DNA of 64,000 nucleotides, from positions 1 to 64,000 of IMG/VR virus record IMGVR_UViG_3300044648_000206; one strand, given 5' to 3'. This DNA is from a virus. Below are positions 1-52,121 of the stretch, in pieces. Under the pieces are notes generated by a model that saw nothing but the letters and a program-made list of their open reading frames with translations, was not told the DNA's origin and did no database searches. The position numbers were made by a program, and so were the translations under genes. Within the stretch, counting starts at the first letter, position 1. The number at the start of each line of letters is the position of its first letter.

Positions 1-36
1 GGTCGTCCTGGACTGCCTTGAGCAGCTTGGCCAGGC

Positions 37-150
37 TCACCAGATCTCCCCGATGAGCCAGACGCTCAGCTCGTAGACGCCGATGCCGACCGCGCCCCAG
101 AACGCCCCGAAGGCGAACTCACTCCACCACTTCTTGCTGGGCAGCCTCAT
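37..150 (-). CDS. small membrane protein
   Basis: My translation MRLPSKKWWSEFAFGAFWGAVGIGVYELSVWLIGEIW; one hydrophobic helix; start/stop overlaps with neighbours. Confidence 0.55.
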   Translation of the reverse strand: MRLPSKKWWSEFAFGAFWGAVGIGVYELSVWLIGEIW

Positions 151-410
151 CAGCACTCCACCTCGTAGCGCAGGACCAGCCGGGAGGGCTCCAGGCTGCG
201 ATCCGCCTTGACCGGGATGCCGACGACCTTGACCAAGATCAGGCCGTCGTACATGGCGTGGGCTCCGTTGACCTCGCGGGCCAGCGCCTGCAACGTCATC
301 GGGTGCGCGTGCAGCACCAGCTGGCTGGTCGACACCGCGTAGAGCTGGTCGGCCTCCCGCAGCCCGTTCTCCACCCGCTCGAGCAGGACCTTGTGCTGGA
401 AGCCGTTCAT
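150..410 (-). CDS. hypothetical protein
   Basis: ATG at 410 overlapping upstream stop, GGAGG RBS. Confidence 0.6.
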   Translation of the reverse strand: MNGFQHKVLLERVENGLREADQLYAVSTSQLVLHAHPMTLQALAREVNGAHAMYDGLILVKVVGIPVKADRSLEPSRLVLRYEVEC

Positions 411-781
411 GCGACCCTCCCGTAGGTCTGGAGCAGGTAGTCGTCCGGCCCGGTGTAGATCACCAGGCCAGTTCCATGGTCGACCGTGACGTAGCCGTCG
501 ATCAGGAGTCCTTGGTCCCGGCCCCCGGGGCCGTGTGCCGCTTGGTGGTGGCGCGGGCAGAGCCCGGCCAAGTGGTAGTCCTCGCCGGCCATGTCCAGCA
601 GGTCGCCGCCCCGCGCCCGGGTGAGCATGTGATGGACCTCGATCCCGCGCCGGAAGCAGCGGGCCCAGACCTCTTCGCCGGTCACGTCGGTCGAGACGTA
701 GACCTCGGCCTCGCACCGCTGGTCGGCCCGCGCGATCACCAGCAGCCGCTGCTTCTCACTGGTGGACTCCTGGCAGATCAT
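407..781 (-). CDS. HNH endonuclease
   Basis: RCE...EVHHMLTRARGG...LCPRHHQAAH HNH pattern. Confidence 0.75.
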   Translation of the reverse strand: MICQESTSEKQRLLVIARADQRCEAEVYVSTDVTGEEVWARCFRRGIEVHHMLTRARGGDLLDMAGEDYHLAGLCPRHHQAAHGPGGRDQGLLIDGYVTVDHGTGLVIYTGPDDYLLQTYGRVA

Positions 782-1029
782 GAGGCCTCGTCCATACGCG
801 GACGGCGGTCTCGGGAGCGGACCTGGGAGCGCGGCTTCTTGCCCAGCTGGACGACCTTGGGCAGGTGCCCGTAGTGCCACAGGTCGCCGCACTGGTAGAC
901 CGACATCTTCTCGCCGGGGTAGAGCCGGGCCGCGCCCTTCTTCGCCATCTTGCGGCTGACGTAGCCCTGCTTGCCGCAGGCCGGGCAGGTGCCGGTGCGC
1001 CCGTCCGCGTAGTAGGTGCCCGGGTTCAT
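778..1029 (-). CDS. small Zn-binding hypothetical protein
   Basis: CPACGK...YQCGDLWHYGH. Confidence 0.6.
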   Translation of the reverse strand: MNPGTYYADGRTGTCPACGKQGYVSRKMAKKGAARLYPGEKMSVYQCGDLWHYGHLPKVVQLGKKPRSQVRSRDRRPRMDEAS

Positions 1030-1292
1030 CGACGCGCCTCGATCTTGGCGAACTGCCGCTTGAGGTCGCGGATGTGCTTGATCTGGCCGTGCCGGCGGCG
1101 GCCGTACCTGGGGTTGCGAGCGTTCAGGTGCAGCCCGAACAGCTTGAGCTGGGCAGCGGCCAGCGCGGACGCCCGGCTGAACTCCCGCATGTTGACCTCG
1201 ACCACGTGGATGATCTCGCCGAAGGCGTTGGGGCCCGGACCGATCACGACCTCGTGGAACTCCAGGTCTTCGTACTTGCCGAGTTCTCTCAC
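1026..1292 (-). CDS. hypothetical protein
   Basis: GTGA overlap with dnaE stop. Confidence 0.55.
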   Translation of the reverse strand: MRELGKYEDLEFHEVVIGPGPNAFGEIIHVVEVNMREFSRASALAAAQLKLFGLHLNARNPRYGRRRHGQIKHIRDLKRQFAKIEARR

Positions 1293-4096
1293 CACGGGGG
1301 TAGCTCCGTGAAGCACTCCAGGGCTCCCTTCTTCCACAGGTTGTGGATCGTTCCGACTGTGTGGTCCTGGGACTCCAGGTACGGCTTGATCCCGGTGACG
1401 GCTCCGCCTTTGACGTAGACGTCCCGGCAGAGCTGCTCGAGGGTCTGCCACCCACCCTCCGGGCGCCGGCTCACCAGCTGCACGGCCTGTTTCTCGCCCA
1501 CACCGTCCAGGGCCAGCAGGCCCATCCGGACGCCGTTGCCCCGGGGGTCGGGCGCGTAGGTCACCCCGGAGAGGTTGATGTCGGCGCGCAGCAGCTTGAC
1601 CCCGCGCCGGCGAGCAGCCGCCTTGTAGGCGGGCTCCTTCTTCTTGTTGCCCGCGGCCACCGCCAGCAGACCGGCGTGGTAGGCCAGCGGCTCGTTGTTG
1701 ATCAGGTACGCGCACCGGTAGGCGGTCAGCCCGTAGGCCGAGGAGTGCGACTGGTTGAAGCCGTAGGTGACGAAGCCGAGGATTGCGGACCAGAGCCAAG
1801 CCACGTCGTCGTTGGACATGCCCCGGTCGTAGGCCATCTCCTGGACCAGCAGCCGGGCGTCGTCCATGACCTCCCGGGCCTTCTCCATCTCGTCCTTCTG
1901 GGAGGCCTTGATCGCCTTGAGGAAGTCGGTGAGCCGGTCCGCGCTCATCCCCAGGTCACGCAGGATGGTGACGACCTGGTCCTGGAAGAGCATGATCCCG
2001 TAGGTGCTCTTGGTGTGCTTCTCGATCAGCTCGTGCCGACGCGGGATCTGCTGTTCCTTGTTCTTGCGCTCGATGTAGGCCTTGGTCGCGCCGGACTCCA
2101 TGGTGGCCGGACGGAACAGGGCCATCGCGGCCACGATGTCGTCGATCTTGGTCGGCTTGAGCTCCTTGCAGCCCCGGCGAGCGGTGCCACCCTCGAGCTG
2201 GAACACCCCGTCCGTGTCGCCCCGGCTGATCGACTGGAAGGTCTTCTTGTCGGTCAGCGGCACCCAGTCCAAGCCGTCGAGCACGTCGCGGCCCATGAAG
2301 GTCATCGCCCGGTTGAGCACCGTCAGGGTGCGCAGCCCCAGCACGTCGAGCTTGACCGCGCCCAGGGCCTCGGTGTCGTGCATGTCGTACTGGCTGACCA
2401 TGGTGTCCGAGGAGGCCACCTTCTGCAGTGGGATCAGCCGGTCGATGTCGCGCTGGGTGGTGGTGACGATCAGCCCGGCCGCGTGCACTCCGTAGCTGGA
2501 CAGGGTGCCGGCCGCGTCCAGGGTGTAGAGGTCGCGCTTGTCCTGCTCGGGCACGTCCTTCCAGTCCGGGATGTTCTCCACGCCCGAGGCGCGCATCCGG
2601 GCGAAGTAGGCCACCCGCAGCGAGCCCTTGGCCTCGTCGTCCCAGTCCTCGACCTCCCACTCGGCGGTCTGGCGCTTGAGCGAGAACTTGGTGTGGGTGC
2701 CGATCTGCTGGACGGCGAACCGGGTGCGCAGCCAGGCGATCAGGTCCTTGCGCCGGTCGTGCTCCACGTCCAGGTCGATGTCCGGGGGCTTGGTCCGGTC
2801 CCGGCTGATGAACCGCTCGAAGGGCAGGTGCCACTTGATCGGGTCCAGCTGGGTGATGCCGCGCAGGTAGCAGATCATCGAGCCCGAGGCCGAGCCGCGG
2901 GCCTGGTAGAACACCCGGTTGGCCCGGCACCAGTCGGTGACCTCGCCGACCAGCTGGAGGTAGCCGGCCATCCCGGTGTCCCGGACGATCTCAAGCTCGT
3001 CGTTCAGCCGCTCGATGCACCGGTCGTAGTGCGCCTTGGCGATCTCCTTGCGGTCCAGCTTCTCCCGCAGCACCCGCTGGCAGTGCTCACTCAGCTCTCG
3101 GTCGGGGTCCGCGACGGTGAAGGGGATGTTGTAGGAGTAGGAGTCGAGCTCGGGGATCTTGAGGTCGTGGGAGGCAAGGAGATCTGCCAGCCCGGCGGCA
3201 CCAGCAGCAAGTCGCCGTCCTGAGTGATGACCCACGAACCAGGCATCATCGGCGAGGTGGAACCCGTCACCAGGGAAGACAGCGTCGTCGGCCTCGGGGC
3301 CGAAGGCGACGATTCGCTTGAGGATCTCGTGGGTCGGCTTGTCAGCCGGTTCGCAGTAGTGAGCGTCCTGTGTGAGGACCGCCGGGAGGCCCAGCTCGTC
3401 GGCCAGCGCCAGCAGCGTGTCAGCCACCCGGTTGTCATTCCAGCCCTCTTCCTCGTGGTCGATGTTGTGGTTCTGCAGCTCGACGTAGAACTTGGGGAAC
3501 CACTGCGCGTAGGCCCACAGCAGCGACCGGGCGCCGTCGATGTCGCCCCGGACGATGGCTTGGCTGGTCAGCCCGAAGTAGCAGCCCGACGTCGCAGCGA
3601 TGCCCTCGAGCAGGCCCTGGTCGCCCAGGGTGGCCAGGTCGTTGTGGTCGACGATCGGCTTGTTGAAGAAGTTGCGGTGGCTCAGCGTCGACAGCCCGAC
3701 CAGGTTCTCGTAGCCCTTGGAGGTGTAGGCGACCACGCACATGTGGTGGCGCTTGAGCTCGCGCGGCGTCTCGCCCTTGGCGCTCATCGCCTTGACGTGC
3801 GCCTCGCGGTCGGTGACCACGTAGAGCTCGGTGCCGGGGAAGGGCAGGATGTCGTTCTTGCGGCTGGCCTGGTACAGCTGGACCGCGCCGGCCATGTTGC
3901 CGTGGTCGGTGAGACCGAGCGCCGGTTGGCCGAGCTTGACGACGGTGTCCACCATCGCCTTGACCGAGGGCAGGGCGTCCTTGTGCGAGAAGCTGCTGTG
4001 GCTGTGCAGGTTCCACAGCTGGCCGGGAGGCACCACCGGCTCGCGCTTGATGCGCAGTACGGGAGCAGGTCGCTCCCGCACAATGGTCAGGTTCAC
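1289..4096 (-). CDS. dnaE: DnaE-like DNA polymerase III alpha subunit
   Basis: PHP domain (LHSHS, LTDHG, DAHY), RGSASGS, catalytic PPDIDLD, VKLDVLGL, YGFNQSHS. Confidence 0.97.
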   Translation of the reverse strand: MNLTIVRERPAPVLRIKREPVVPPGQLWNLHSHSSFSHKDALPSVKAMVDTVVKLGQPALGLTDHGNMAGAVQLYQASRKNDILPFPGTELYVVTDREAHVKAMSAKGETPRELKRHHMCVVAYTSKGYENLVGLSTLSHRNFFNKPIVDHNDLATLGDQGLLEGIAATSGCYFGLTSQAIVRGDIDGARSLLWAYAQWFPKFYVELQNHNIDHEEEGWNDNRVADTLLALADELGLPAVLTQDAHYCEPADKPTHEILKRIVAFGPEADDAVFPGDGFHLADDAWFVGHHSGRRLAAGAAGLADLLASHDLKIPELDSYSYNIPFTVADPDRELSEHCQRVLREKLDRKEIAKAHYDRCIERLNDELEIVRDTGMAGYLQLVGEVTDWCRANRVFYQARGSASGSMICYLRGITQLDPIKWHLPFERFISRDRTKPPDIDLDVEHDRRKDLIAWLRTRFAVQQIGTHTKFSLKRQTAEWEVEDWDDEAKGSLRVAYFARMRASGVENIPDWKDVPEQDKRDLYTLDAAGTLSSYGVHAAGLIVTTTQRDIDRLIPLQKVASSDTMVSQYDMHDTEALGAVKLDVLGLRTLTVLNRAMTFMGRDVLDGLDWVPLTDKKTFQSISRGDTDGVFQLEGGTARRGCKELKPTKIDDIVAAMALFRPATMESGATKAYIERKNKEQQIPRRHELIEKHTKSTYGIMLFQDQVVTILRDLGMSADRLTDFLKAIKASQKDEMEKAREVMDDARLLVQEMAYDRGMSNDDVAWLWSAILGFVTYGFNQSHSSAYGLTAYRCAYLINNEPLAYHAGLLAVAAGNKKKEPAYKAAARRRGVKLLRADINLSGVTYAPDPRGNGVRMGLLALDGVGEKQAVQLVSRRPEGGWQTLEQLCRDVYVKGGAVTGIKPYLESQDHTVGTIHNLWKKGALECFTELPPW

Positions 4097-4115
4097 TACG
4101 GGCTCCTTTCAGAAG

Positions 4116-4187
4116 CTCCCCGGCGAGGACTCGAACCTCGATCTCTGCGCCCAGAACGCAGCCGCTTGCCAGTTAGCGGACCAGGGA
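4116..4187 (-). tRNA. trnQ: tRNA-Gln(CTG), CCA not encoded
   Basis: Cloverleaf: TCCCTGG/CCGGGGA acceptor, CTGCG-TTCTGGG-CGCAG anticodon arm, GGTTCGAGTCC T arm. Confidence 0.93.
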
Positions 4188-4190
4188 AGG

Positions 4191-4269
4191 GGAGAGGGCG
4201 GGTGTTTCATGGGCGGACTGCGGCAACCGCTGTCCTGGGATCTCCCCAGGCACCATGCCCGCCCTCTCC
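4191..4269 (-). ncRNA. structured RNA motif A, copy 1
   Basis: 12-bp perfect closing stem, CATGG/CCATG helix, GAGAT-loop hairpin, AAACA bulge; homologous to 28979-29060. Confidence 0.7.
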
Positions 4270-4275
4270 TGCTGG

Positions 4276-4428
4276 TTACTGGATGGCGCGCCGGAGGTAC
4301 GAGAGGCGCTCGAGCACCTCGGTGGCGTTCTCATCCAGCCGGTCGACGTCCTCCTGGCTGGAGGCCTGCGGCTCCTGGAGGGTGTTGATCGCGAAGATCG
4401 CGTAGTCCAGGGCTTCCTTCGCGGTCAC
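4276..4428 (-). CDS. small hypothetical protein
   Basis: 50-aa ORF (MTAKEALDYAIFAINTLQ...) with GTGA overlap. Confidence 0.55.
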   Translation of the reverse strand: MTAKEALDYAIFAINTLQEPQASSQEDVDRLDENATEVLERLSYLRRAIQ

Positions 4429-4814
4429 GAGGTGCTCAGGTCGAAGTTCGGGATGATCGTCTCGGGTCGGAAGATCACCCGTGACCGGAACAGGTCGACG
4501 TGCACGCCGCCGATCTGGGTGACGATGATCGTCACGTTGTCCGACTTCGCCAGCGTGGTGCGCTCGATGGACCCGTCCGGCTGCTTGCAGATCGCCTGGT
4601 ACGAGCCGCCACCGATCTCGTAGGAGCAGAAGCCCTCGACCGAGAAGAGGACGCTGTCGGTGATGCCGTTGATGCCGACGATCCGGCGCGGGACCTCGAA
4701 GTTCTCGGCGGCCTTGGTCAGGTTCTCGTTGGCCCGGTCGGCGGCGCTGGGACCGGTGCAGCCGGCCACGAGCAGGGCGCCGGCGGCGAACACGGCAGCG
4801 GCGGCGCGCTTCAT
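4425..4814 (-). CDS. lipoprotein
   Basis: Signal peptide with lipobox LVAGC. Confidence 0.75.
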   Translation of the reverse strand: MKRAAAAVFAAGALLVAGCTGPSAADRANENLTKAAENFEVPRRIVGINGITDSVLFSVEGFCSYEIGGGSYQAICKQPDGSIERTTLAKSDNVTIIVTQIGGVHVDLFRSRVIFRPETIIPNFDLSTS

Positions 4815-5134
4815 ACCGTCACCTCCGCGCGCTCCTCGAGGTAGCGCGCCTCGGCTGCGTCTGCGACCACGACGTAGTGGGGGTCGTCGCCGGTCCCCTC
4901 GACGTCGGTGTAGTCGCTCAGGTGCAGCAGGTCCGAGAGCAGGTCCTGGACGACCGTCTCGATCGGCTCGCCCACGGCGCCGGTCTTGTAGGCGTACATC
5001 GCCAGCGGGACCAGCGTCCGCGACGCCCGGTACTCGTTGCTGCTGAGGTCGGGCTCGGTCGCATTCGCGTCGAGCACCGGCCGGAAGGCCTCGAGGGCCT
5101 CCCTCACGGTGCCCTGAGCTTGGATCTGGGTCAC
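4811..5134 (-). CDS. hypothetical protein
   Basis: Coupled ORF, DLLSDLLHL helical motif. Confidence 0.6.
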   Translation of the reverse strand: MTQIQAQGTVREALEAFRPVLDANATEPDLSSNEYRASRTLVPLAMYAYKTGAVGEPIETVVQDLLSDLLHLSDYTDVEGTGDDPHYVVVADAAEARYLEERAEVTV

Positions 5135-5244
5135 TTCTTCTTCTCCTTGGGTGGGGTGGTCTTCTTGGCCTTCTCGGCCTCGGCGAACTTGCGCTCGCGC
5201 TCCGCGCGCATGGCCTTCTCGCGCGGGCCGATCTCCTTAGCCAC
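5131..5244 (-). CDS. small basic protein
   Basis: GTG start, VAKEIGPREKAMRAERE... Confidence 0.45.
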   Translation of the reverse strand: MAKEIGPREKAMRAERERKFAEAEKAKKTTPPKEKKK

Positions 5245-5515
5245 GGGGCTTGACGTACGGCTCGTTGTCGGTCGGGCGCGACTCGGCGAACGAGTACCGG
5301 ATGCGGGCCGGCTTCGCCAGGGAGATCCGCCGGTACAGGCTCGGGTACTTGGGCCGGTAGATGCCCTGCCGCTTCTCACCGTCCGGGGTCACGACGAGGA
5401 CGTCGCCGCCCTGGCGCCGGGTCTGTCGGTTCGGACCCTTGGTCGAGACCAAGGGGATGACCTCGACCTTGGGCGCGTGCAGCACCGAGCGCGGGGTGCG
5501 GTTGTGGGAGGCCAT
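5237..5515 (-). CDS. hypothetical basic protein
   Basis: ORF with AAGGA RBS. Confidence 0.55.
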   Translation of the reverse strand: MASHNRTPRSVLHAPKVEVIPLVSTKGPNRQTRRQGGDVLVVTPDGEKRQGIYRPKYPSLYRRISLAKPARIRYSFAESRPTDNEPYVKPRG

Positions 5516-5516
5516 C

Positions 5517-5681
5517 TCAGTCCTTCGTCAGGAAGTCGAAGAACTTCTGAGCGGCCTTGACGATCTCGTCGGCGTCGCTGAACGAGTTGACGTCGACCGC
5601 CTTCTCCAGCGCGGCCAGCCGCAGCTGGCTGTCACTGAACAACGGCAGATGCACGTCGCGTGGGTTTGGCGCGTCGCTCAT
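5517..5681 (-). CDS. hypothetical protein
   Basis: GAGGAGG RBS; LRLAALEKAV...IVKAAQKFFDFL. Confidence 0.65.
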   Translation of the reverse strand: MSDAPNPRDVHLPLFSDSQLRLAALEKAVDVNSFSDADEIVKAAQKFFDFLTKD

Positions 5682-5704
5682 GGGTACCTCCTCAGGGGTG
5701 GGGA

Positions 5705-5748
5705 GCCGGGGGCCCGCGGTTCGCGGCAGGGTGTCGCGGGCCCCCGGC
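5705..5748 (-). terminator. GC-rich hairpin (terminator or processing site) after SSB
   Basis: 14-bp perfect stem GCCGGGGGCCCGCG/CGCGGGCCCCCGGC, no clear U-tract. Confidence 0.5.
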
Positions 5749-5751
5749 GAC

Positions 5752-6516
5752 TTACTCGGTGCCGAACTTGGCGATGAGCTTGTCGGCGAGCTCACCGGCG
5801 GTGTCGGTGGACGACCACTCGACGCCGGCCTTGTCGCAGAGCTCGCGCAGCTCGGGCCGGTCCATCGCCCGCACCTTGGCCTCGGTCAGCTCGACCGACT
5901 CCTCCGAAGCGGGAGCGGCCTGCTCACCCTTCGGCTCAGTAGGGGGGTTCTCGTCCCCCGGCACGTGCTCTGCGGCCGGAGCCTCACGCTGGGCCGGGAT
6001 GGCCGGGGTGTCGCCCCAGGCCTCCTTCCAGGACTCCTGCAGGCACTGCTGCACGGTCAGCTCGGCCTCGGAGAGCCGCTTGGCCGTGTCGACCTCGTAC
6101 TTGTCCTCCTGGTCGACGTCGTACTCGGTCTCCAGGCCCTCGCCGGTCTTCATCACCGAGTAGTCCCGGTTGAGGATGGTGCCGTTGTTCTTCTCCGCAC
6201 GAGCCGCGATCCGGTCGGCCAGCGAGCCGGGGATCTTGAACGGCAGCACCTTGTCCTTCTCCACCAGGAGGAGGTACGTTCCGTAGCGGCGCGAAGCCTT
6301 GCGCTGCTTGTCGATCTCGGAGGTGCAACCCGGGCAGGTCGTCTTGTCACCCGTGCAGGGGTAACCCTTGCCGGTAGCGGTGCGGTGCTCCCAGAACTCG
6401 ATCCAGTCGTCCTGCTCCTGCAGGAACCGGACCTTGGTCTCGCCCTTGGCGAAGCCGCGGAGGTAGACCCCGCTGCCGCGCTCTGGCGCGTCTGCCTTGC
6501 GTACGCCGAACTCCAT
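5752..6516 (-). CDS. ssDNA-binding protein (gp32-like) with C-terminal helix-extension-helix domain
   Basis: KVRFL...EH...CTGDKTTCPGC Zn motif; position in replication module. Confidence 0.7.
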   Translation of the reverse strand: MEFGVRKADAPERGSGVYLRGFAKGETKVRFLQEQDDWIEFWEHRTATGKGYPCTGDKTTCPGCTSEIDKQRKASRRYGTYLLLVEKDKVLPFKIPGSLADRIAARAEKNNGTILNRDYSVMKTGEGLETEYDVDQEDKYEVDTAKRLSEAELTVQQCLQESWKEAWGDTPAIPAQREAPAAEHVPGDENPPTEPKGEQAAPASEESVELTEAKVRAMDRPELRELCDKAGVEWSSTDTAGELADKLIAKFGTE

Positions 6517-6563
6517 CTGAACCCCTTGTTTCTGTGGCTGCGAAGAGCCGTTGGTGGTGGGTG

Positions 6564-6797
6564 TTACCGGTTGCGCTGAGCGGCGTTGGCGTCGGCCATG
6601 ACGCCGCCCTGCCGCTCGATCTCGCGAATGACGTTCTCGGCCACGGCCTTGCCGGTCCGAGTGGACGCCGCCTTGGCGTCCTCGCCGTCCTGGACAGCCG
6701 AGTTGAACTCGACCTTGATCCAGGCGTCCTTGCCGTCGATGCGGACCTGGTGGGTCACGCCGACCGTCACGCGGTCGCCAGGGGCAACGTCCGTCAT
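6564..6797 (-). CDS. hypothetical protein
   Basis: Coupled ORF MTDVAPGDRV... Confidence 0.6.
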   Translation of the reverse strand: MTDVAPGDRVTVGVTHQVRIDGKDAWIKVEFNSAVQDGEDAKAASTRTGKAVAENVIREIERQGGVMADANAAQRNR

Positions 6798-7279
6798 CAG
6801 TGCTCCATCTCTGCCAGCTGCTGCTGGGCAAGGGCGATCTGGGAGAGCGGGACCGAGGTGTCCTCGCCCTTGTCGGCCAGCTCCTGAGCTCGCTGACGGT
6901 GGTACGCGATCCGGCTGTAGAGCCGGTTGCGCTCCTTGCGCTGGTCCTTGGTCCACTTGCGCGGCCGGCCCGTCTTCTTCTCGATGACGTCCTGCAGCGG
7001 CACGACCTGCTTCTGCCGGTCGAGGTGGCCGCGGATCTTGTCGATGTCGGCCTGGGTGTAGAGGTAGACCTCGATCCGGCCGAACAGCGCCTTGAAGCTG
7101 GGCACCAGGCGGTCGGCCGGATCGGGCAGGTCCTTGGTGGCCACGATCAGGCGCCGCAGCGTGCGGTCGCTGGTGCCCAGCAGGGCAGCCGCCTCGCGGA
7201 CCATGAAGTAGTCGCCGTCCAGGGACCGCACGAAGCGGGTCACCGGGTCCAGCGGGCGGGCGAACACGGCGCTGCTCAT
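6797..7279 (-). CDS. MerR/excisionase-like HTH DNA-binding protein
   Basis: YFMVREAAALLGTSDRTLRRL...YLYTQADID. Confidence 0.75.
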   Translation of the reverse strand: MSSAVFARPLDPVTRFVRSLDGDYFMVREAAALLGTSDRTLRRLIVATKDLPDPADRLVPSFKALFGRIEVYLYTQADIDKIRGHLDRQKQVVPLQDVIEKKTGRPRKWTKDQRKERNRLYSRIAYHRQRAQELADKGEDTSVPLSQIALAQQQLAEMEH

Positions 7280-7737
7280 GGCTGCTCCGCGACGAACCGC
7301 AGCGAGGTGCTGGTCTTGACCTCGGACACGTCGGCAACGTCCTGGGGCGAGAGCCACCCACTTGCCACCGCCTCCGCGACCTTGGCGTTGACCAGCTTCC
7401 GCTCGGTCAGCCTGTTCCATGCCCGGGCGCCGATCTTCGCCTTGAGGGCCTGCGCGTCGATCCTCGCGTCATCCCTGGACACAACCGTGGCGCGCCAGGG
7501 CTGGCCGGTCAGGTCAGTGCCGACCGCCGTCCGCTCCCCGCGCAGAAGCAGGTGCTGGGTGAGGGTGTCGCGGACCTTGGTCCGCTGCTCCTGGGCCTCG
7601 GCCAGGGCCGCCTCAGCGTCCGCCACGGCGTCGATCAGAGCGGTCAGCTCCGGGTCGTCGTCGACGATCTCGGCGATCGTGTCGTCGTAGACGGTGCTGG
7701 GCTCAGGGGAACTTACATCGGTGTCATTCAGGGGCAC
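7276..7737 (-). CDS. hypothetical coiled-coil protein, probably leaderless
   Basis: GTG 7 nt downstream of a TAACTT -10 box. Confidence 0.55.
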   Translation of the reverse strand: MPLNDTDVSSPEPSTVYDDTIAEIVDDDPELTALIDAVADAEAALAEAQEQRTKVRDTLTQHLLLRGERTAVGTDLTGQPWRATVVSRDDARIDAQALKAKIGARAWNRLTERKLVNAKVAEAVASGWLSPQDVADVSEVKTSTSLRFVAEQP

Positions 7738-7741
7738 GAGC

Positions 7742-7773
7742 AGGAAGTTACACGGGTGTAGTTCACCTGGCAA
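7742..7773 (-). promoter_or_regulatory. sigma70-type promoter with palindromic operator (class B)
   Basis: TTGCCA-N17-TAACTT; 23-bp match to 11290-11312. Confidence 0.7.
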
Positions 7774-8632
7774 GAGACACGAGCAAGGTGGAGCGAAGTT
7801 GTCGAGGAGCCTCCTCGATGTCCTTCGCCTGCACCCCGGACCAATCGACCCGAGACACCGCAAACCCTTCATGCGTAAGGCGTTCGTCGAGCCCGACGAC
7901 TCGCTTGCCCTTGTCGGTGACCCAGCCCTCGACGGCGCGCTGACCGGCCAGGTCGTTGTCCATCACCAGCCCGACGTGGCGCACGCCGGCGCGATGCAGC
8001 AGCTGGACCTGCCGGTCGCTGATCTGGGCCCCGAACAGCGCCCAGGCCTCGTGCCCGACCTCCCAGCAGGCCATCGCGTCGGCCGCGCCCTCGACCAGCA
8101 GCACCGAGTCCCGGCCCTCGGTGGTGTAGCCGAAGAGCCGGTCGGAGACCTTGGAGTTGGGCGGGTAGACGTACTTGGGCTGGTGCTCCAGCTGGCGGTA
8201 GACCACGCCGTGGATGCGCCCGTACGGGTCACGCAGCGGGTAGCAGGGCGAGGGTCGGGGCACCCCGTTGACCGAGCGCAGGCCGTTGTAGCCCAGCCGG
8301 AAGTGGTCGATGGTCTTCTGCTCGAAGCGGTCGCGCCAGTACGGGGTGGCCACGCCTGGGCGGTGGAAGAGGTCCAGCCAGCTCTCGGGGTAGACCTTGA
8401 CTTCCTCCAGCTCGTCGAGCATCTCGAGGATGCCCTGACCGAAGTGGAAGTCGTCGCTCTCGACGATCGTCTTGGTGTCCCCGGTGGAGCCGCAGACGTA
8501 GCAGAACCAGACGCCCTTGATCACGTTGACCGAGGCGCTGGCGTGGCTGTCGCCGTGGACCGGGCAGCGGAAGGCCCGCTCTCGTCCTCTACCCCGGGTG
8601 AGAGCTTCCTCGAGACTTCTGTAGGTGGGCAC
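7763..8632 (-). CDS. dnaG: DNA primase (Zn finger + TOPRIM)
   Basis: CPVH...CYVC; LLVEGAADA; MDNDLAG. Confidence 0.9.
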   Translation of the reverse strand: MPTYRSLEEALTRGRGRERAFRCPVHGDSHASASVNVIKGVWFCYVCGSTGDTKTIVESDDFHFGQGILEMLDELEEVKVYPESWLDLFHRPGVATPYWRDRFEQKTIDHFRLGYNGLRSVNGVPRPSPCYPLRDPYGRIHGVVYRQLEHQPKYVYPPNSKVSDRLFGYTTEGRDSVLLVEGAADAMACWEVGHEAWALFGAQISDRQVQLLHRAGVRHVGLVMDNDLAGQRAVEGWVTDKGKRVVGLDERLTHEGFAVSRVDWSGVQAKDIEEAPRQLRSTLLVSLAR

Positions 8633-8792
8633 GGCCGGCTCCAGTCAGTCGCACCTCGTAGGTGCCCGGGACGGGGGTGACGTTGACCTTGATCAGGTCG
8701 GCGCAGAGCAGCGTGGCGAGGGCCAGCTGCTGGCCGCGGATCAGGGTCCAGCCCCGGTCAGGAAGGCTCTGCAGGAGCTCTACTGAGATCAC
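8589..8792 (-). CDS. hypothetical protein
   Basis: Short ORF within operon. Confidence 0.45.
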   Translation of the reverse strand: MISVELLQSLPDRGWTLIRGQQLALATLLCADLIKVNVTPVPGTYEVRLTGAGRAHLQKSRGSSHPG

Positions 8793-8946
8793 GCGGGTCA
8801 GCCTCCCAGACCAGGTCGACGGTCTCCCAGCAGCCCGGCTGCAGGCACTGGAGGCCGGAGTGCTCGCCGCACAGGTCGCAGCCCGAGACGTCGGTCTCCT
8901 CCCAGAGGTGACCGCTCGGGTGGGTGCAGGGCTCAGGTGTGTTCAT
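8758..8946 (-). CDS. small Cys-rich protein
   Basis: CTH...CDLC...CLQPGC. Confidence 0.5.
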   Translation of the reverse strand: MNTPEPCTHPSGHLWEETDVSGCDLCGEHSGLQCLQPGCWETVDLVWEADPRDLSRAPAEPS

Positions 8947-9149
8947 CAGGTCCTCTCCAGAGGGAGCTTGCTGCGGGGTATGTAACCCATCGGCGCTCGA
9001 CGGGCCTGCATCTCGTAGAAGGCCTCGCCGACCATGCACACCTGGCGTCCGAGCGCCCAGACGTGGTGCAGGTCCTTCTGCCGGTGCTCCTCGAGACCGC
9101 CGGAGCCGCGCGGGCACGACAGGTACTGGTAGAAGTCAGTCCCAGCCAT
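8946..9149 (-). CDS. hypothetical protein
   Basis: Coupled ORF. Confidence 0.45.
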   Translation of the reverse strand: MAGTDFYQYLSCPRGSGGLEEHRQKDLHHVWALGRQVCMVGEAFYEMQARRAPMGYIPRSKLPLERT

Positions 9150-9421
9150 CAGATCTCCACGTAGACGGTTCGGCAGCCCACCGCCATCACCACGCCGGCC
9201 GAGGGCTCACGGTCGAAGCGCATCTTCTTGCGGGCCCGGTTCCCCGTGGTCGGCCGGGTCGCGGTGGCCATGTAGATGGCCGTCAGATGCGCGTCGACCT
9301 CCCCGCGGTCGGTGGCGATCACGTGGTAGGTGGTCGCGTCCACACGGGGAGGTCGACGAAGAGCTACATCGACCTCGATGTAGAAGGTCGCTTGCTCGTG
9401 CTGCACGGGGCCCACGTCCAT
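9149..9421 (-). CDS. hypothetical protein
   Basis: Coupled ORF. Confidence 0.5.
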   Translation of the reverse strand: MDVGPVQHEQATFYIEVDVALRRPPRVDATTYHVIATDRGEVDAHLTAIYMATATRPTTGNRARKKMRFDREPSAGVVMAVGCRTVYVEI

Positions 9422-9517
9422 CCGAAGAGCTCGCTCCAGTACACCCGCTGCTTGATCCCGGAGTACCGGCCGACCATCTTCGCGCAGTCCACCGCACTGG
9501 CCCAGGTGATTCCAGTG

Positions 9518-9709
9518 TCAAACCGCACGGAGCTCACGCCGCACCTCCACCGCCGGCTCGGTGATGTGGCTGGCGCCCTGGGCCCGGGTGGCCGAGCAGC
9601 GAACGCACTTGCGGTACCAGGGGCTGCCGTCCTCAGGATGGACGGTCTCCATGTAGTGCTGTCCCTCGATGCAAACCTGTGCCAGAGCAGTTGAGTCTGT
9701 GAAACGCAT
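9518..9709 (-). CDS. small Zn-ribbon protein
   Basis: CIEGQH...RKCVRC. Confidence 0.5.
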   Translation of the reverse strand: MRFTDSTALAQVCIEGQHYMETVHPEDGSPWYRKCVRCSATRAQGASHITEPAVEVRRELRAV

Positions 9710-10983
9710 CAGTCCAGGTCCTCTCGGTCACGCAGGTCGTCGGCCACCTCGCGCGAGATCTCGTGCAGCTGGCCGTCGTTCGGCAGGAAACGATTGAAGT
9801 ACCGCGCGCCAGAGTCGCCATGTCGATGCTTCTCGATCGAGTTGACCTGGCTGGTCTTGCTGTACTGGGTCATCGTGGTGAGCAGGTCCCCGTCCCGGCC
9901 CATGGCGTCCGAGCCGGCGAGGTTGCTGGCCTTGGGCGGGTACTTGGCAGTCTCGCCCTCACGGTTGACCTGCACCAGCACCATCATCCGCGTGTCTTTG
10001 GCGATGGTGATCTTCTTGAGCTCGCCAGAGAGCATGGCCAGGATGCGCCAGTCCTCCATCATCGACTTGCCGCTGGTGCTGGTCATCAGGTCGATGTAGT
10101 CGATGACGTTGAGGTCCACGTCACCGGCCCGGGCTGCGACGGTGGCCGGTGTGCAGGCCCCGTCCGAGGGGTCGAACAGGAACAGCTCGCCCGGCACCTC
10201 GTCGCGGATCTTGTTGACCAGCTTGCGGTAGGCGACCATGTCGAAGGTCCGGGTCCGCATCGCCCGGTGGTCCACCGGCAGGCCCAGCTTGGCGCCCAGG
10301 AGGACGTGCAGCCGGGTCAGGACCTGCTCGTGGGGCATCTCCAGGGACCAGTAGTTGACCCGGCGACCCTCCAGCAGGGCCGTGGCGGTCACCTCGAGCG
10401 CGCCCCAGCTCTTGCCCTTGCCGAGGCGGGCGGCGTGGAACCAGAGGTAGCCCTTGCCCATGCCCCCGGTGACGTGCTGGAGGGTCTTCCAGGGCAGCGT
10501 GATCGTGTCCGGGCGCTCGGCGTACCGAGTCAGGAAGCTCAGGTCCCACAGGGCGTTGGAGGGCGGCTTGACGCCCGCCAGCGGGGTGTAGTTGGCCAGC
10601 GCAATGGCGGCCTCGGAGTACTCCCCCTCCTGGATGTAGATCGTCGCCTCGCGCACCGCGGAACGCAGGTTCCGCTGGTCGGCGATCTGACGCACCTCGT
10701 CGGCCGCGAAGGCCGCGTCGGTGGTGTCGGAGAAGGGGAACTCAGGGAACTTGGACAGCAGCGCGTCCTGAGCCGGGCATCGCCCGTAGGTGGCTGCGTA
10801 GGAGAGCACCCAGCGGTACTCCGTCTGGAACCCGACGAACATCTCGGGTTCGATGCCGTGCTGCTGGCCCAGGCCAGCGTCGTGGCTGTTGATCAACGCA
10901 CTGATCAGCAGCGCCTCTGCAGTCTGCCGCACTCGGTTGCAGGCCCCCTCAACTCGGCGTTCCGTGGTTGGTGGGTGAACCAT
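9709..10983 (-). CDS. dnaB: DnaB-like replicative helicase
   Basis: ARLGKGKS Walker A, SLEM, VIDYIDL, QVNR, KHRHG. Confidence 0.92.
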   Translation of the reverse strand: MVHPPTTERRVEGACNRVRQTAEALLISALINSHDAGLGQQHGIEPEMFVGFQTEYRWVLSYAATYGRCPAQDALLSKFPEFPFSDTTDAAFAADEVRQIADQRNLRSAVREATIYIQEGEYSEAAIALANYTPLAGVKPPSNALWDLSFLTRYAERPDTITLPWKTLQHVTGGMGKGYLWFHAARLGKGKSWGALEVTATALLEGRRVNYWSLEMPHEQVLTRLHVLLGAKLGLPVDHRAMRTRTFDMVAYRKLVNKIRDEVPGELFLFDPSDGACTPATVAARAGDVDLNVIDYIDLMTSTSGKSMMEDWRILAMLSGELKKITIAKDTRMMVLVQVNREGETAKYPPKASNLAGSDAMGRDGDLLTTMTQYSKTSQVNSIEKHRHGDSGARYFNRFLPNDGQLHEISREVADDLRDREDLD

Positions 10984-26965: not shown

Positions 26966-28178
26966 GGTGCGAGAAGAGGTCCGGGAGCCGGAGACCATCC
27001 GGGGCCGGATCATGGCGGCCTTCGACCGCGACGAGCTGAGCCGGATCTGCACGCTGCCGGAACGGCGGTTCGCCAAGGCTTACGGGCTGCGGCGGTACAA
27101 GGTCGAGCAGCCCCAGCCGTACCGGTCGGGGACCGGGGTGCTGGTCGCCCCTGCCGCGCCCCCGTCGTACCGGTACACCTGCCCGGACGACTTCTTCGCC
27201 TACCGGGACAACGGGTCGAACATCCTGGCGGTGGCCCACCTGGACACCGTCGTGATGCCGATCGACCGGATGTGCGACTTCGCCGAGACCGCCGATGGCA
27301 CGGTGGTGCACTCTGGTGCCCTGGACGACAGGCTCGGCGCTTACGTGATCCTCGACATGCTCCCGAAGCTGGGGATCAACGTGGACGTGCTGCTCACCAC
27401 CGGTGAGGAGTCCGGCAAGTCCACGGCCAAGTTCTTCCAGCCGCCCAAGGGGAAGGACTACCACTGGATGATCGAGTTCGACCGCGGTGGCACTGACGTC
27501 GTGATGTACCAGTACGACTCCAGGGACATGGATGAGATCGTCCGCTACTCGGGTGCCAAGACCGGCAACGGCGCGTTCTCGGACATCTGCTACCTCGAGC
27601 ATCTGCTGATCAAGGGCTTCAACTGGGGCGTCGGGTACCAGGACTACCACGGGGTGCGCGGCTACGCCTACCTCGAGGACCTGTTCCAGATGCTCACCTA
27701 CTTCGTGCGGTTCCACGACATGTGGGCCGACACGAAGCTCGACCACGACCCCAAGGACAAGAAGTCCGGTCGGGGCTGGTGGCGTGGTGGCGGCGGTGGT
27801 CACCACCACGGTAGGCATGACCACAGGAGAGGAGGACCTGGAGGGCTCTGGGGCGCCCAGAGCGGCAGTGGGGGTTGGTGGGACGACCCGCCACCCACGG
27901 TCAAGGACAAGAAGGACAAGGACGACGGAGAGGACAAGAAGCGAATGAGCAGTGCTGCAAGCGTGCTCGACGACATCGAAGGGCCGGGGCCGATGGTCTT
28001 GGCCGGAGACACCCAGGGCGAGATCGAGGTGATCTCGCTGGACGAGGTCCTGGAGGCGGTGGGCAGCGACGGGCTGGACAAGCTCGTCGACGACCCGCGC
28101 CTGGCGGGCTCGCCGAAGTGGGGCGACAGCCTCGCGACGTCGGACCCGACCGACCCTGAGTTTGTGAGCCCGGCATGA
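26952..28178 (+). CDS. M20/M28-like Zn metallopeptidase with low-complexity tail
   Basis: AHLDTV, GALDDRLG, GEESG, EFDRGG, FSDI, GYQDYH. Confidence 0.85.
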   Translation: MSSPEVREEVREPETIRGRIMAAFDRDELSRICTLPERRFAKAYGLRRYKVEQPQPYRSGTGVLVAPAAPPSYRYTCPDDFFAYRDNGSNILAVAHLDTVVMPIDRMCDFAETADGTVVHSGALDDRLGAYVILDMLPKLGINVDVLLTTGEESGKSTAKFFQPPKGKDYHWMIEFDRGGTDVVMYQYDSRDMDEIVRYSGAKTGNGAFSDICYLEHLLIKGFNWGVGYQDYHGVRGYAYLEDLFQMLTYFVRFHDMWADTKLDHDPKDKKSGRGWWRGGGGGHHHGRHDHRRGGPGGLWGAQSGSGGWWDDPPPTVKDKKDKDDGEDKKRMSSAASVLDDIEGPGPMVLAGDTQGEIEVISLDEVLEAVGSDGLDKLVDDPRLAGSPKWGDSLATSDPTDPEFVSPA

Positions 28179-28933
28179 GTGCCCCGGGGACGAAGCTGAC
28201 GTTCGACGTCAGCGGGACGCTGCGCGGCGACGGCCGGGTCACCATCGGCTGCCAGCCGTTCACCATGGCCGAGCTGACCAACTCGGCCGAGGAGGTGACG
28301 GCGGCCCGCAACACGGTCACCGTCCGGCGTGCCGTGGGCACCGTGGGCGAGGGCGACAGGGTCTCGTTCGCCGGGACCGGCGGCCGGACCTTCGCGGAGC
28401 GACAGGTCCGTGGGGTCGCCCGCAACCTGCAGGTCGAGGAGCCCCAGGCGGCTCGGATCGCGGCCACCTCGGTCGACGACCCGGCCCCTGGCAGCGTCCT
28501 GCAGGCCACGAAGGGCAACAAGCGCCACCTGTTCGTTCTCGTCGAGGAGGACGGCGAGCTGGTGGCCTACCGGAACCGCCGGAACCCGGACTACATCGAG
28601 GAGTGGCAGGACAAGTACTCCTCGGAGAAGGGCTGGGTCTGGTCGGTGCTCGGCAGCGAGTCGGCCGAGGCGGGTGCCCAGGCGGTCAACGCCCAGGCGA
28701 ACCCCAACCCGGCCACCCTGCGCTGGCAGGAGGGTGACCAGGTCGAGTGGATCGACGGCCGGGTCCCGAGCACCGGTCCGCGGACTCGGGACTCCCAGGG
28801 CCGGTGGTGGCGGCAGAACGGCCACCGCCGCACGGCCGGTCGGCGCTGGAACTGGACCGACGACCGCTACGACCGCATGATCGCGGCGGGCAAGGTCCGC
28901 ATCATCACGAAGGGCGGTGTGCACTTCACCTGA
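28175..28933 (+). CDS. hypothetical protein
   Basis: Coupled ORF, last gene of rightward operon. Confidence 0.65.
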   Translation: MSAPGTKLTFDVSGTLRGDGRVTIGCQPFTMAELTNSAEEVTAARNTVTVRRAVGTVGEGDRVSFAGTGGRTFAERQVRGVARNLQVEEPQAARIAATSVDDPAPGSVLQATKGNKRHLFVLVEEDGELVAYRNRRNPDYIEEWQDKYSSEKGWVWSVLGSESAEAGAQAVNAQANPNPATLRWQEGDQVEWIDGRVPSTGPRTRDSQGRWWRQNGHRRTAGRRWNWTDDRYDRMIAAGKVRIITKGGVHFT

Positions 28934-28978
28934 GCCCCGGTCAGGGCACGGAACCCTCCCCCAGGGGTCCTGGCCGGC

Positions 28979-29060
28979 GTCCGTAGGCGGGCATGGTGTC
29001 GGAGGAGATCTCCGAACGGGTCCGTTCGCCAGAAGCCCTGTGAAACACCCGCCTGCGGGC
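28979..29060 (+). ncRNA. structured RNA motif A, copy 2
   Basis: GGCGGGCATGGTG...GAGAT...TGAAACACCCGCC shared with 4191-4269, compensatory stem changes. Confidence 0.7.
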
Positions 29061-29090
29061 ACTACCCTTGAGTACGTCCTTCCAGAGGAC

Positions 29091-29128
29091 AGAGGCCCCG
29101 GTCCCCTTCGGGGGGCCGGGGCTTCTTC
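29091..29128. terminator. terminator between convergent operons
   Basis: GAGGCCCCGGTCCCC-TTCG-GGGGGCCGGGGCTTC followed by TT. Confidence 0.75.
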
Positions 29129-50316: not shown

Positions 50317-52121
50317 TTCTTGCCCTTGGGCGGGGCCTTCTTCGGCGTGGCCTTCTTGGCAGGCTTCTTGGCAGCCGACTGCTGCTGGGCCTTCTGGCGC
50401 TCGAGCAGCAGCCGCTGGCGCTGCGACATCCGGGAGTAGGTCAGCTCCTGCTTGCCCTTGTCACGCTCGAACCGCAGGGACTGCTTGTTCCGCTCGGACT
50501 CGGTCTTGAGCCCGGTCTTGTGCCGCTCCTGCTCGATCTGCAGCTTGGTCTTGTGCGCCTCGTCCTTGTGGCGCATGTCCTGCTCGGCCATCTGCCGCTT
50601 GATCTCGATGTCGGTGTCCTGGACCGCTGAGGGGTCCGGCTGGGGCTGCTCCATCTGCATCTGCTGCTGCTGCAGACCGAGAGCGCCCTGCTGGGCCTCC
50701 ATCTGCATCCCGAGCATCTCCATGCGCTGCTGGGCGACCCGCATGACGTCGGCCTGCCGGCTCTCCAGCTCGAGGGCAGCCTCGGCCTCCTCGGACAGCT
50801 GGGGCAGCCGGGCGGCGTCCCGGACGAACTTCTCGAGCTCGGCGTCCGGGAACCAGACCACGCCAGCCTGAGCCATCTGGCCCATGAACTGGCCGAGCTG
50901 GGTGAGGTCGGGCGGGTCGACGTCGTTGGGCACGATCTTCGGCAGCTTCTCCGGGGTCCATGCGTTGATCTTGAACAGACGCGGGATGGCGTTCCGGTTG
51001 AAGACGTCGGCGATGGCCCGGGCGATGGAGTTGATCGCCGTGCGGAACAGGCCGGACTTGTCGGTGTGCATGGCGTAGGAGCCGACCGACTCGTGACCGA
51101 CCAGGATGAAGTCGGCCAGAACGGTCATCAGCATCCGCTGCTCGTACCGCTGGATGATGGCCGAGGTGTCGAAGGCCCGGGTGCCGCCGGAGCTGAGCAG
51201 CTCGAAGTCGAACAGCGGCTGCTTGGTTTCCTGGTCGTACAGGGTGGGCAGGACGATGCCCTCCTGCTCGTCCCGGCGCACCGAGCGGACCATGCGCTTG
51301 TAGGCCTCGACCATCTTGGCCTTGTCGGTGCCCGGCTGGGCGTTGAGGTAGTCGGCCGGCACCCGCCCGACCGGCATACCGGCCAGGTCGCGCTCGGCGC
51401 CGATGGCCTCGATCTCCTCGAGGCGCTTCTTCATGTACCAGGGCCGGTAGGCGTTGCGCAGGATCGAGCGGCCCTCGGGGTTGTTCTTCACCGAGTTCGG
51501 CCGGAAGAGCAGGCACTTCTCGATCGGCAGCGGCACCGGGCGGTAGCTCGGCGGCGCCATCTGGATCATGCCCTTGAGCGAGCCGTTGTCGTCGAAGACC
51601 CACCGCAGCAGGGTCTCCTGCGCACGCAGCGGCATCTTGCGCCAGCCGATCTTGCCGTCCGTGTACTGGCTCTTCTTGAGCGGGTCCTCCTCCCAGGGGC
51701 CGACCCGGCGCTTGTAGCAGATCTCGTTCATGGCCCAGCCGTAGGGCAGCATGGTGAGGATCTCGGAGATCAGGTCGTCCCAGGTGTGGGACATGTCCTC
51801 CATGCACTGCTCGACGAACTCGGCAGCTTCCTTGTCCTCCGGGGCGTCCCCGGCGGCCTCCACCCGCCACTCGACCTGGCGCAGCAGCCGGTCGATGGCG
51901 AAGAGCAGCGCACCCACGATGGGGTCGTTGGTCTCCATCTCCCGGAAGATCTGGACGGCCTTGCGGCCGCGCAGCTGCGGGAGGAACTCCTCGTCGATGT
52001 ACCCGCCCGTACGGCGCAGGCCGGTCTGCCCCAGCTCGACGTGCGTCGGCACGTTCGTGGGCATCTCGTCGAGGGCCTCGAGGCTCTCGTCCTCGTACCC
52101 GAGGTGGGGGCTGACGGTCAT
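50313..52121 (-). CDS. portal protein
   Basis: Follows terminase; NNPEGRSILRNAYRPW...ERDLAGMP; Gln/Lys-rich tail. Confidence 0.9.
   Translation of the reverse strand: MTVSPHLGYEDESLEALDEMPTNVPTHVELGQTGLRRTGGYIDEEFLPQLRGRKAVQIFREMETNDPIVGALLFAIDRLLRQVEWRVEAAGDAPEDKEAAEFVEQCMEDMSHTWDDLISEILTMLPYGWAMNEICYKRRVGPWEEDPLKKSQYTDGKIGWRKMPLRAQETLLRWVFDDNGSLKGMIQMAPPSYRPVPLPIEKCLLFRPNSVKNNPEGRSILRNAYRPWYMKKRLEEIEAIGAERDLAGMPVGRVPADYLNAQPGTDKAKMVEAYKRMVRSVRRDEQEGIVLPTLYDQETKQPLFDFELLSSGGTRAFDTSAIIQRYEQRMLMTVLADFILVGHESVGSYAMHTDKSGLFRTAINSIARAIADVFNRNAIPRLFKINAWTPEKLPKIVPNDVDPPDLTQLGQFMGQMAQAGVVWFPDAELEKFVRDAARLPQLSEEAEAALELESRQADVMRVAQQRMEMLGMQMEAQQGALGLQQQQMQMEQPQPDPSAVQDTDIEIKRQMAEQDMRHKDEAHKTKLQIEQERHKTGLKTESERNKQSLRFERDKGKQELTYSRMSQRQRLLLERQKAQQQSAAKKPAKKATPKKAPPKGKK

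Follow-up and report, generated by a model that had tools for sequence, protein, structure and literature searches.

Hammerhead, twister-sister, pistol and hatchet RNAs are small, consist of covarying stems around an invariant core and are scattered in phage-like DNA. To our knowledge, the combination of a near-invariant core with covarying stems is nearly always found in ribozymes, in riboswitches or in RNAs that bind a specific protein or the ribosome. Here we analyse a motif of this kind that is present twice in a 64,000-nucleotide stretch of soil-phage DNA (positions 1 to 64,000 of the 72,264-b IMG/VR record IMGVR_UViG_3300044648_000206). This whole stretch is referred to as the window, and all coordinates are those of the window. 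The two sites belong to a single class of small structured RNA that had not been catalogued before.

The properties of the small ribozyme classes are stated in part in PMC5737381. The motif resembles small phage ribozymes in its size, its covarying stems, its small core, a probable loop-helix contact and the lack of a fixed partner gene. However, it differs from them in that no covariance model of a known class matches it and in that it persists inside a translated essential gene. A second comparison is offered by DUF3800-I, drum and FuFi-1 together with skipping-rope (Weinberg et al. 2017), conserved ribozyme- or riboswitch-like folds located outside 5' untranslated regions (UTRs), to which PMC5737381 assigns no function. 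The motif likewise has a highly conserved complex fold outside 5' UTRs. However, the orphan RNAs are followed by terminators and several are tied to one protein domain, whereas the motif has neither feature; moreover, all of them are in Rfam, whereas the motif has no Rfam match. Finally, PMC10690425 (Fremin et al. 2023) reports 8,495 unnamed csRNA candidates from intergenic IMG/VR sequence, with a median length of 65 nt. The data source and the kind of evidence, covariation, are the same as here, and the motif may be listed among these candidates. A literature search found no description of the motif in full texts, main-text passages of PMC10690425 included; supplementary lists lie outside that search.

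Two window copies and a covarying family

An earlier note on this DNA, made from the sequence alone, had described a repeated, covarying motif of about 80 nt in two copies. Both sites were confirmed; for the second, the location was borne out and the strand was corrected, copy 2 lying on the plus strand, opposite copy 1. The anatomy of the copies is given below, P1, P1a, P2 and P3 being the stems and MFE the minimum-free-energy fold.

4191–4269, minus strand: copy 1, P1 to P1, 79 nt (sequence read; fold)
4258–4269, minus strand: copy 1, 5' strand of P1, GGAGAGGGCGGG, pairing with 4191–4202
4251–4257, minus strand: copy 1, conserved CAUG-GUG; CAUG pairs with 4208–4211 (P1a) and GUG is a junction strand
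4234–4250, minus strand: copy 1, P2 hairpin, CCUGGG, GAGAU loop and CCCAGG (sequence read)
4232–4233 and 4212–4231, minus strand: copy 1, AC junction and variable P3 hairpin (sequence read)
4203–4211, minus strand: copy 1, CAUG (3' strand of P1a) and AAACA bulge, the bulge being present in the MFE fold
4191–4202, minus strand: copy 1, 3' strand of P1, CCCGCCCUCUCC (sequence and MFE fold)
28981–29058, plus strand: copy 2, P1 to P1 (sequence read; 13-mer and spaced-pattern matches)
28981–28991 with 29048–29058, plus strand: copy 2, P1
28992–28998, plus strand: copy 2, CAUGGUG
28999–29015, plus strand: copy 2, P2, with its GAGAU loop at 29005–29009
29016–29017, 29018–29038 and 29041–29047, plus strand: copy 2, AC, P3 and UG-AAACA, respectively

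In the window, copies 1 and 2 are the only places where the 13-mers GGCGGGCATGGTG and TGAAACACCCGCC match with 0 mismatches, giving two matches for each 13-mer, and a spaced pattern applied to the whole 72,264-b record recovered the same two copies and nothing else (reversed control, 0). The copies have a common core and different stems; in P2, for instance, CCUGGG/CCCAGG in copy 1 corresponds to UCGGAG/CUCCGA in copy 2, so that the differences are compensated. The MFE fold of copy 1, at -51.4 kcal/mol (z -5.3), contains both P1 and the AAACA bulge. For copy 2 the MFE is -44.1 kcal/mol (z -3.6), with P1 kept and an interior that departs from the consensus.

The earlier note had looked to further homologues as a sign of function, and these were sought with pattern scans and with a covariance model, R1. 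Scan 1 searched 2.9 million viral contigs for GGCATGGTG-N30-60-TGAAACACC and gave at least 118 loci; scan 2, in which C after AAACA was forbidden, gave at least 120 further stretches, 2 of them in loci already known from scan 1. CAUGGUG was demanded by every scan pattern. The family counts given below rest on these two scans, that is, on the matches listed. Complete P2/GAGA architecture was present in 110 of the 119 scan-1 pattern matches (120 loci, the two window copies being counted with 118 viral ones), whose contigs span 35–71% G+C. On our own reckoning, a pattern with 18 fixed positions should give some tens of chance matches in the collection. The nine non-conforming matches fit this expectation, whereas the conforming ones cannot be chance, because the members share an architecture and a covariation far above controls. 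With a relaxed pattern, at least 214 distinct instances were parsed from both scans combined, and R1 matched 100 of 100 scan-2 loci tested (about 118 new among the matches listed). Among cultured phages, megablast of positions 3000–6000 gave no match, and one member, compared by blastn with 50,697 phage records, gave only chance matches of 23–35 nt.

The consensus alignment holds 101 distinct sequences and 18 predicted pairs, and compensatory changes were found at 16 of the 18. Standard pairs fill 90.3% of the cells, compared with 56.9% after shuffling, and none of 500 shuffles reached the covariation score of 0.804 (0.197 shuffled); when the partners were shifted 1–3 columns, the score was at most 0.18. 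G-U wobbles are frequent, reaching 20% at one P3 pair, and A-C combinations, which are the antisense equivalent of G-U, are rare except at the outermost predicted pair; therefore, the given strand is the folded strand. These data show that the motif is a structured, strand-specific RNA under strong selection for pairing, and they bear out the earlier reading of the compensated stems as selection on RNA structure.

Copies 1 and 2 score 76.4 bits (4189–4271) and 67.2 bits (28978–29061) with R1, but both were members of its training alignment and their scores are thus not independent support. R1 found no other strong match in the window or in the whole record. A weak match at 51736–51820 on the plus strand (13.4 bits, E 0.3) contains GCAUGGUG and a GAGAU loop without GAAACA; we judge that it is not a member but a chance match or a decayed relic.

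Fold, invariant core and rejected identities

The consensus is a three-way junction of about 75–90 nt with conserved loops and an AAACA bulge, as had been proposed from the two copies. P1 may have any sequence and stands next to the short helix P1a, and the conserved bulge lies between them on the 3' side. Conservation extends to the junction strands GUG and AC, and the unpaired core is nearly unchanging while the stems covary freely. P2 measures 6+5+6 nt in 149 of 160 parsed matches, 8 of the 11 failures being read as non-members. Among these 149 distinct members, P2 is completely paired in 133, its loop is GAGAU in 82, GAGAG in 31, GAGAA in 25 and GAGAC in 11, and the P2-P3 linker is AC in 135. 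P3 has a stem of mostly 3–6 bp and a variable loop, and long insertions are possible. The bases preceding UGAAACA are CA in 79 of the 149; therefore, P1a is a CA/UG helix that is lengthened to CAUG/CAUG in about half of the members.

The first patterns forced GG...CC beside the core. In the 77 new or variant instances of scan 2, the pair adjoining the core is C:G in 30, A:U in 5 and U:A in 4, and 34 have a G...AAACAAA variant. Second copies found by R1 alone have the same covarying pair, together with a few core variants, and natural variants of CAUGGUG were met only in these copies. The position beside the core is thus an ordinary covarying P1 pair or belongs to the G...AAACAAA variant. An alternative GGUG/CACC pairing was rejected, since GGC...GCC or CG...CG variants at the top of P1 keep P1 contiguous.

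A loop-receptor clamp is suggested by the constant length of P2, by its GNRA-like pentaloop and by the position of an A-rich bulge, which lies at a matching distance along P1. The 6-bp P2 would place the loop so that it folds back to dock against the AAACA bulge and the uppermost P1 pairs; such docking would clamp the junction rigidly and present the conserved GUG/AC core. The likeness is to a GNRA tetraloop or boxB-type pentaloop with its helical receptor: GAGA and a variable base, with G-C or C-G as the closing pair, at the tip of a stem of constant length, and an A-rich bulge between G:C pairs at a matching distance. However, the bulge, G-AAACA-CC, departs from the classical 11-nt receptor in sequence and polarity. 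The motif flanks have no conserved boxA-like element.

The motif matches no RNA family catalogued in Rfam 15, in agreement with the earlier note, which had not recognised it as a known riboswitch or ribozyme. The whole window searched with the 4227 models at gathering threshold gave two tRNAs only, and local scans at E<=10 with either copy or with a variant member gave only chance matches to microRNAs and small RNAs (sRNAs) well below threshold. A hammerhead was rejected: its CUGANGA, GAAA and UH core is absent by inspection, no Rfam hammerhead matches, and, compared with the hammerhead strands, the junction strands of the motif are (CAUG)GUG, AC and a linker of 0–2 nt, AAACA being a bulge. 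A K-turn or box C/D RNA, a double pseudoknot like that of hepatitis delta virus and loop B of the hairpin ribozyme do not fit in sequence or strand order on inspection and have no Rfam match; the 11-nt tetraloop receptor and look-alikes of 5S rRNA loop B/E were likewise rejected by inspection, also with no Rfam match. With the exoribonuclease-resistant RNAs (xrRNAs) of flavivirus type, whose 5' end is threaded through a ring-like fold, the motif has only the three-way-junction topology in common, and no sequence is conserved upstream of P1.

A coding role for the conserved AUG was also rejected. The core length modulo 3 is uniform (58/50/47), and the median open frame from this AUG is 24 codons, compared with 20 and 17 in the other frames. 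Nor does the AUG behave as a start codon with a Shine-Dalgarno sequence hidden by P1: frames are not conserved, and Shine-Dalgarno-like words occur in 23 of 147 cases compared with 16 in the control window. Finally, the motif is not a repeat resembling miniature inverted-repeat transposable elements or repetitive extragenic palindromes, as the stems differ between copies; the two window copies have the core alone in common, and in archaea the differences are compensated.

Genomic context in phages, bacteria and archaea

The neighbours of the two window copies are as follows; GC3 is the G+C fraction at third codon positions and ORF an open reading frame.

4115–4187, minus strand: tRNA-Gln(CTG), a neighbour outside the motif itself, 3 nt past the downstream end of copy 1 (ARAGORN)
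4276–4428, minus strand: 50-residue ORF whose TAA lies 7 nt before copy 1; GC3 0.94
4425–4814: recombination directionality factor (RDF)-like gene, phrog_478, upstream of the 50-residue ORF
28175–28933, plus strand: 252-residue ORF of no known family, with no Pfam or PHROG match, ending 47 nt before copy 2; GC3 0.94
29093–29123, about 35 nt past copy 2: G+C-rich, terminator-like hairpin (sequence read; weak matches to terminator-type sRNA models)

Both copies are sense to real neighbouring genes, judged by the GC3 of 0.94, in agreement with the earlier statement that they lie in the transcribed sense. The hairpin at 29093–29123 separates the plus-strand operon of copy 2 from a convergent tape-measure gene (29139–33950, minus strand). 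The tRNA-Gln(CTG) scores 46.8 bits with the Rfam tRNA model in a local scan, yet it is missing from the gathering scan of the whole window; this looks like a filter effect and not like a doubtful tRNA. Four DNA sequencing runs compared over 3600–4900 gave fragmentary contigs and no joints.

Sense orientation is general in the family. When genes were called with a GC3 filter in clean high-G+C cases, the strands of the upstream and downstream genes relative to the motif were (+,+) in 39, (+,-) in 13, (-,+) in 12 and (-,-) in 3, and an upstream stop codon lay within 28 nt before the core in 34 of 63. Therefore, the motif is transcribed in sense and packed between genes. The neighbouring genes are unrelated (endolysin, portal, protease, helicase, capsid, polymerase and others, in 42 upstream and 40 downstream proteins scanned); the commonest family among the 40 downstream proteins has 4 members, a helicase in related phages, and the remainder are diverse. 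The earlier note had emphasised that copy 1 abuts the 5' end of tRNA-Gln. Copy 1 does end 3 nt before it; the arrangement is not general, however, a same-strand tRNA within 25 nt downstream being present in 2 of 110 members (the window and L113). ARAGORN and Rfam call only the neighbouring tRNA-Gln, and the motif was thus rejected as a tRNA or a tRNA-Gln leader. A few loci do have tRNAs or a transfer-messenger RNA (tmRNA) within about 2 kb. L106 has a phage-borne tmRNA (4052–4411, plus strand, 107.9 bits) and at least two tRNAs by Rfam (three by ARAGORN) upstream of its motif copy.

Around the RDF-like gene, 0 of 19 viral relatives have the motif or the tRNA within 2.5 kb of the homologous gene. 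These relatives share 41–81% identity in the RDF-like gene and lose synteny right after it, so that insertion boundaries cannot be drawn. The distribution of the motif is patchy. In bacterial genomes and archaeal metagenome-assembled genomes (MAGs), a single genome per species (185,579 species) was scanned with a pattern of 24 fixed bases, and 55 loci were obtained; they fall in Acidobacteriota, Actinomycetota (including Streptomyces and Nocardia), Verrucomicrobiota, Myxococcota, Planctomycetota, Nitrospira, Gemmatimonadota, Bacteroidota, Saccharibacteria and Thaumarchaeota MAGs. The bacterial loci have prophage-like flanks (terminase, capsid, protease, RecT, integrase, HNH), and R1 found 1–3 copies in each of three whole bacterial genomes. 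Tandem, directly adjoining copies were seen in at least five independent loci (L117, L166, L123, L233 and L183/L255). About 230 nt from the tandem copies of L117 there is a group I intron (2454–2662, minus strand, 89.8 bits).

In one lineage, the motif lies in frame within the large-terminase ORF, in the linker between the ATPase and nuclease domains, and the conserved AUG is read as a codon. Fifteen of 55 related terminase genes carry it, and about 40 relatives with 68–77% identity lack a stretch of 20–25 residues of this acidic linker. The frame is open in all 15, and ribosomes therefore read through the motif. In this clade P2 takes the forms UCUGGG/CCCAGA, UCCGAG/CUCGGA and CCAGAG/CUCUGG, all changes being compensated, and the encoded peptide shifts with the form of P2 (SGEIPE, SEEISE and PEEISG). 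Since the compensated changes alter the peptide, selection acts on RNA pairing and not on the peptide. These copies argue against efficient self-cleavage, nuclease processing and attenuation, and for a function that is independent of location.

Two terminases of this group deserve mention. In that of L324 (84% identity; alignment A5, columns ~310–380), the linker insertion is kept and the motif has decayed, without an R1 match; this is a natural loss of the motif inside the terminase clade. The terminase ORF of L362, which is the contig of L039 (ORF 301–3078), contains, in addition to the motif, an insertion of about 260 residues after NFWALQ (A5 columns ~507–766). The insertion begins with C and ends with HN before C, and it looks like a candidate intein.

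With R1, multiple copies were found in two Thaumarchaeota MAGs, 8 in one of 1.4 Mb and 16 in a Nitrosopumilales MAG of 1.9 Mb. The neighbours of these copies are cellular genes (an MFS transporter, a rhodanese/metallo-beta-lactamase, methyltransferases and a vapB-vapC pair), and comparison of 17 archaeal copies showed that P1, P2 and P3 differ by compensated changes. A TATA-like hexamer stands 40–47 nt before the AUGGU anchor (~25–30 nt before the start of P1) in 14 of 19 copies, and half-sites of a TTCGTCAAT...ACGAA-type palindrome lie about 70–84 nt upstream in 11 of 19. In four aligned loci the palindrome and TATA also precede paralogous PQQ-like beta-propeller genes; such a gene is found 190–370 nt downstream of the motif in 5 of the 19 copies. 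The shared upstream elements suggest a putative, so far uncharacterised archaeal regulon, and the archaeal motif looks like a set of small-RNA genes, each about 85 nt long and with a promoter of its own, that would belong to it. The palindrome-TATA arrangement recurs upstream of the motif in loci L370–L385, L176 and L169 of the Thaumarchaeota MAGs. In L176 (836–1412), an AbrB-type antitoxin-like ORF of 69 residues and a PIN-domain ORF of 124 residues lie about 300 nt downstream of the motif.

Taken over phages and archaea, the results show an element that is independent of location, has no fixed partner gene, is sometimes present in tandem and occurs both in phage operons and in archaeal chromosomes.

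Proposed partner binding and its rivals

The reading that we favour, tentatively and with slightly more doubt than confidence, is that the motif is an autonomous RNA module which binds a conserved partner or a small ligand and acts as a stable small RNA, a decoy or a sponge. The presented core would bind a partner whose conservation extends from bacteria to archaea, be it an RNA-binding machine of the cell or a small ligand, and the motif would act wherever it is transcribed, from its own promoter or carried inside a message. We commit ourselves to the view that it is neither a tRNA-Gln leader nor a terminator nor a regulator of the neighbouring gene.

Several points weigh against the binding-module reading. 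All 15 sequencing runs listed for window positions 1–10000 are soil-metagenome DNA, and none is on record as RNA. In the flanks examined, the motif is not accompanied by any recurrent protein family. Ribosomes would unfold the translated terminase copy, and an RNA-level role is weakened there. Most of the 'invariant' core positions were fixed by the search patterns, and the variability of the core is thus undersampled. A mutual-information screen gave no clean tertiary covariation, its signals being confounded by phylogeny and sampling. In archaea, the putative promoter derives from sequence motifs and not from mapped starts, and MAG binning may misassign contigs.

A related proposal is that the motif constitutes a new functional RNA class with an intrinsic activity, as a self-cleaving or allosteric ribozyme or as an aptamer sponge, found in tailed phages of many phyla and as regulated multi-copy small-RNA genes of Thaumarchaeota. 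We consider this unlikely. The earlier note had listed a processing element, a ribozyme and a protein-binding decoy side by side. The translated terminase copies disfavour efficient cleavage and processing, and binding or a decoy function is the more likely part of that list.

That the motif is specifically a new self-cleaving or catalytic small ribozyme, comparable to hammerhead, twister, pistol or hatchet and scattered in phage operons where it would cut polycistronic RNA, appears improbable. About 17 unpaired core nucleotides in a three-way junction with covarying stems and a likely loop-helix contact are what such an RNA would be expected to have. The absence of a fixed gene context, the sense orientation in phage and prophage operons, the occurrence in bacteria-associated and archaeal DNA, the tandem copies and the two cases adjoining a tRNA also fit. 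However, the motif is kept by compensation in the translated, essential terminase gene of 15 relatives, where efficient cleavage would destroy the message. It has no defining core of a known class and no Rfam ribozyme match at E<=10, and the archaeal transcript seems to start at P1, which would leave nothing upstream to remove.

We give equally little credence to a nuclease-resistant fold, that is, an mRNA stabiliser or xrRNA-like block that protects the message or leaves a stable decay fragment. The frequent position directly past a stop codon (at most 28 nt away in 34 of 63) and the location at the ends of convergent units, copy 2 being an example, speak for it. So do the very stable, compact fold, the tolerance of any location, an ORF included, and the hosts of many phyla, which fit a purely mechanical action. 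A simple G+C-rich hairpin would suffice for this task, however, and the near-invariant junction, bulge and loop would be left unexplained. Nor are terminators associated with the motif. At least four T within 12 nt past P1 were found in 10 of 147 cases only, and a hairpin followed by a T-rich site within 130 nt downstream in 9 of 185, compared with 3, 11 and 5 in control windows; an intrinsic terminator was itself rejected on these counts. Finally, there is no evident message for the archaeal genes, multi-copy and apparently with promoters of their own, to protect.

A riboswitch-type aptamer, with control of expression in cis in response to a small molecule, is very improbable. The conserved junction with variable outer stems, together with the tandems, may recall aptamers such as that for glycine, and in archaea the motif follows the putative promoter, with a PQQ-like gene 190–370 nt downstream in 5 of 19 copies. 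However, no consistent gene class accompanies it, the downstream, upstream and prophage flanks being diverse, and a riboswitch or cis-regulatory leader was rejected for this reason. There is no expression platform either, neither a terminator nor an excess of Shine-Dalgarno-like words (23 of 147 against 16 in the control window), the motif occurs inside an ORF, and in archaea a separate palindrome and TATA, belonging to the PQQ-like gene, stand between the motif and the start codon of that gene.

A small mobile or selfish element, or else a single-stranded-DNA signal such as a priming or recombination site, is likewise very improbable: the patchy distribution (0 of 19 relatives with the motif near the RDF-like gene, where synteny is lost), the insertion of ~20–25 codons in one terminase clade, the multiple copies in two archaeal MAGs and the tandem and tRNA-adjoining copies are compatible with it, but copies in the same genome differ in all stems by compensated changes and are therefore old paralogues and not products of recent transposition, no terminal repeats, target duplications or transposase were found in the flanks, and the sense bias (52 versus 3 clean cases) is explained more simply by RNA.

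The motif is abundant, with at least 200 distinct instances in contigs of 35–71% G+C plus archaeal genomes, and a model for it would give annotators a means of labelling a recurrent and otherwise unexplained intergenic element of phage genomes. Its copies in the terminase gene provide an unusually clean natural example of selection on RNA structure overriding protein sequence. Knowledge of its partner or activity could bring to light a new way in which phages affect a host process of universal conservation, or else add an RNA catalyst or an aptamer to those known.

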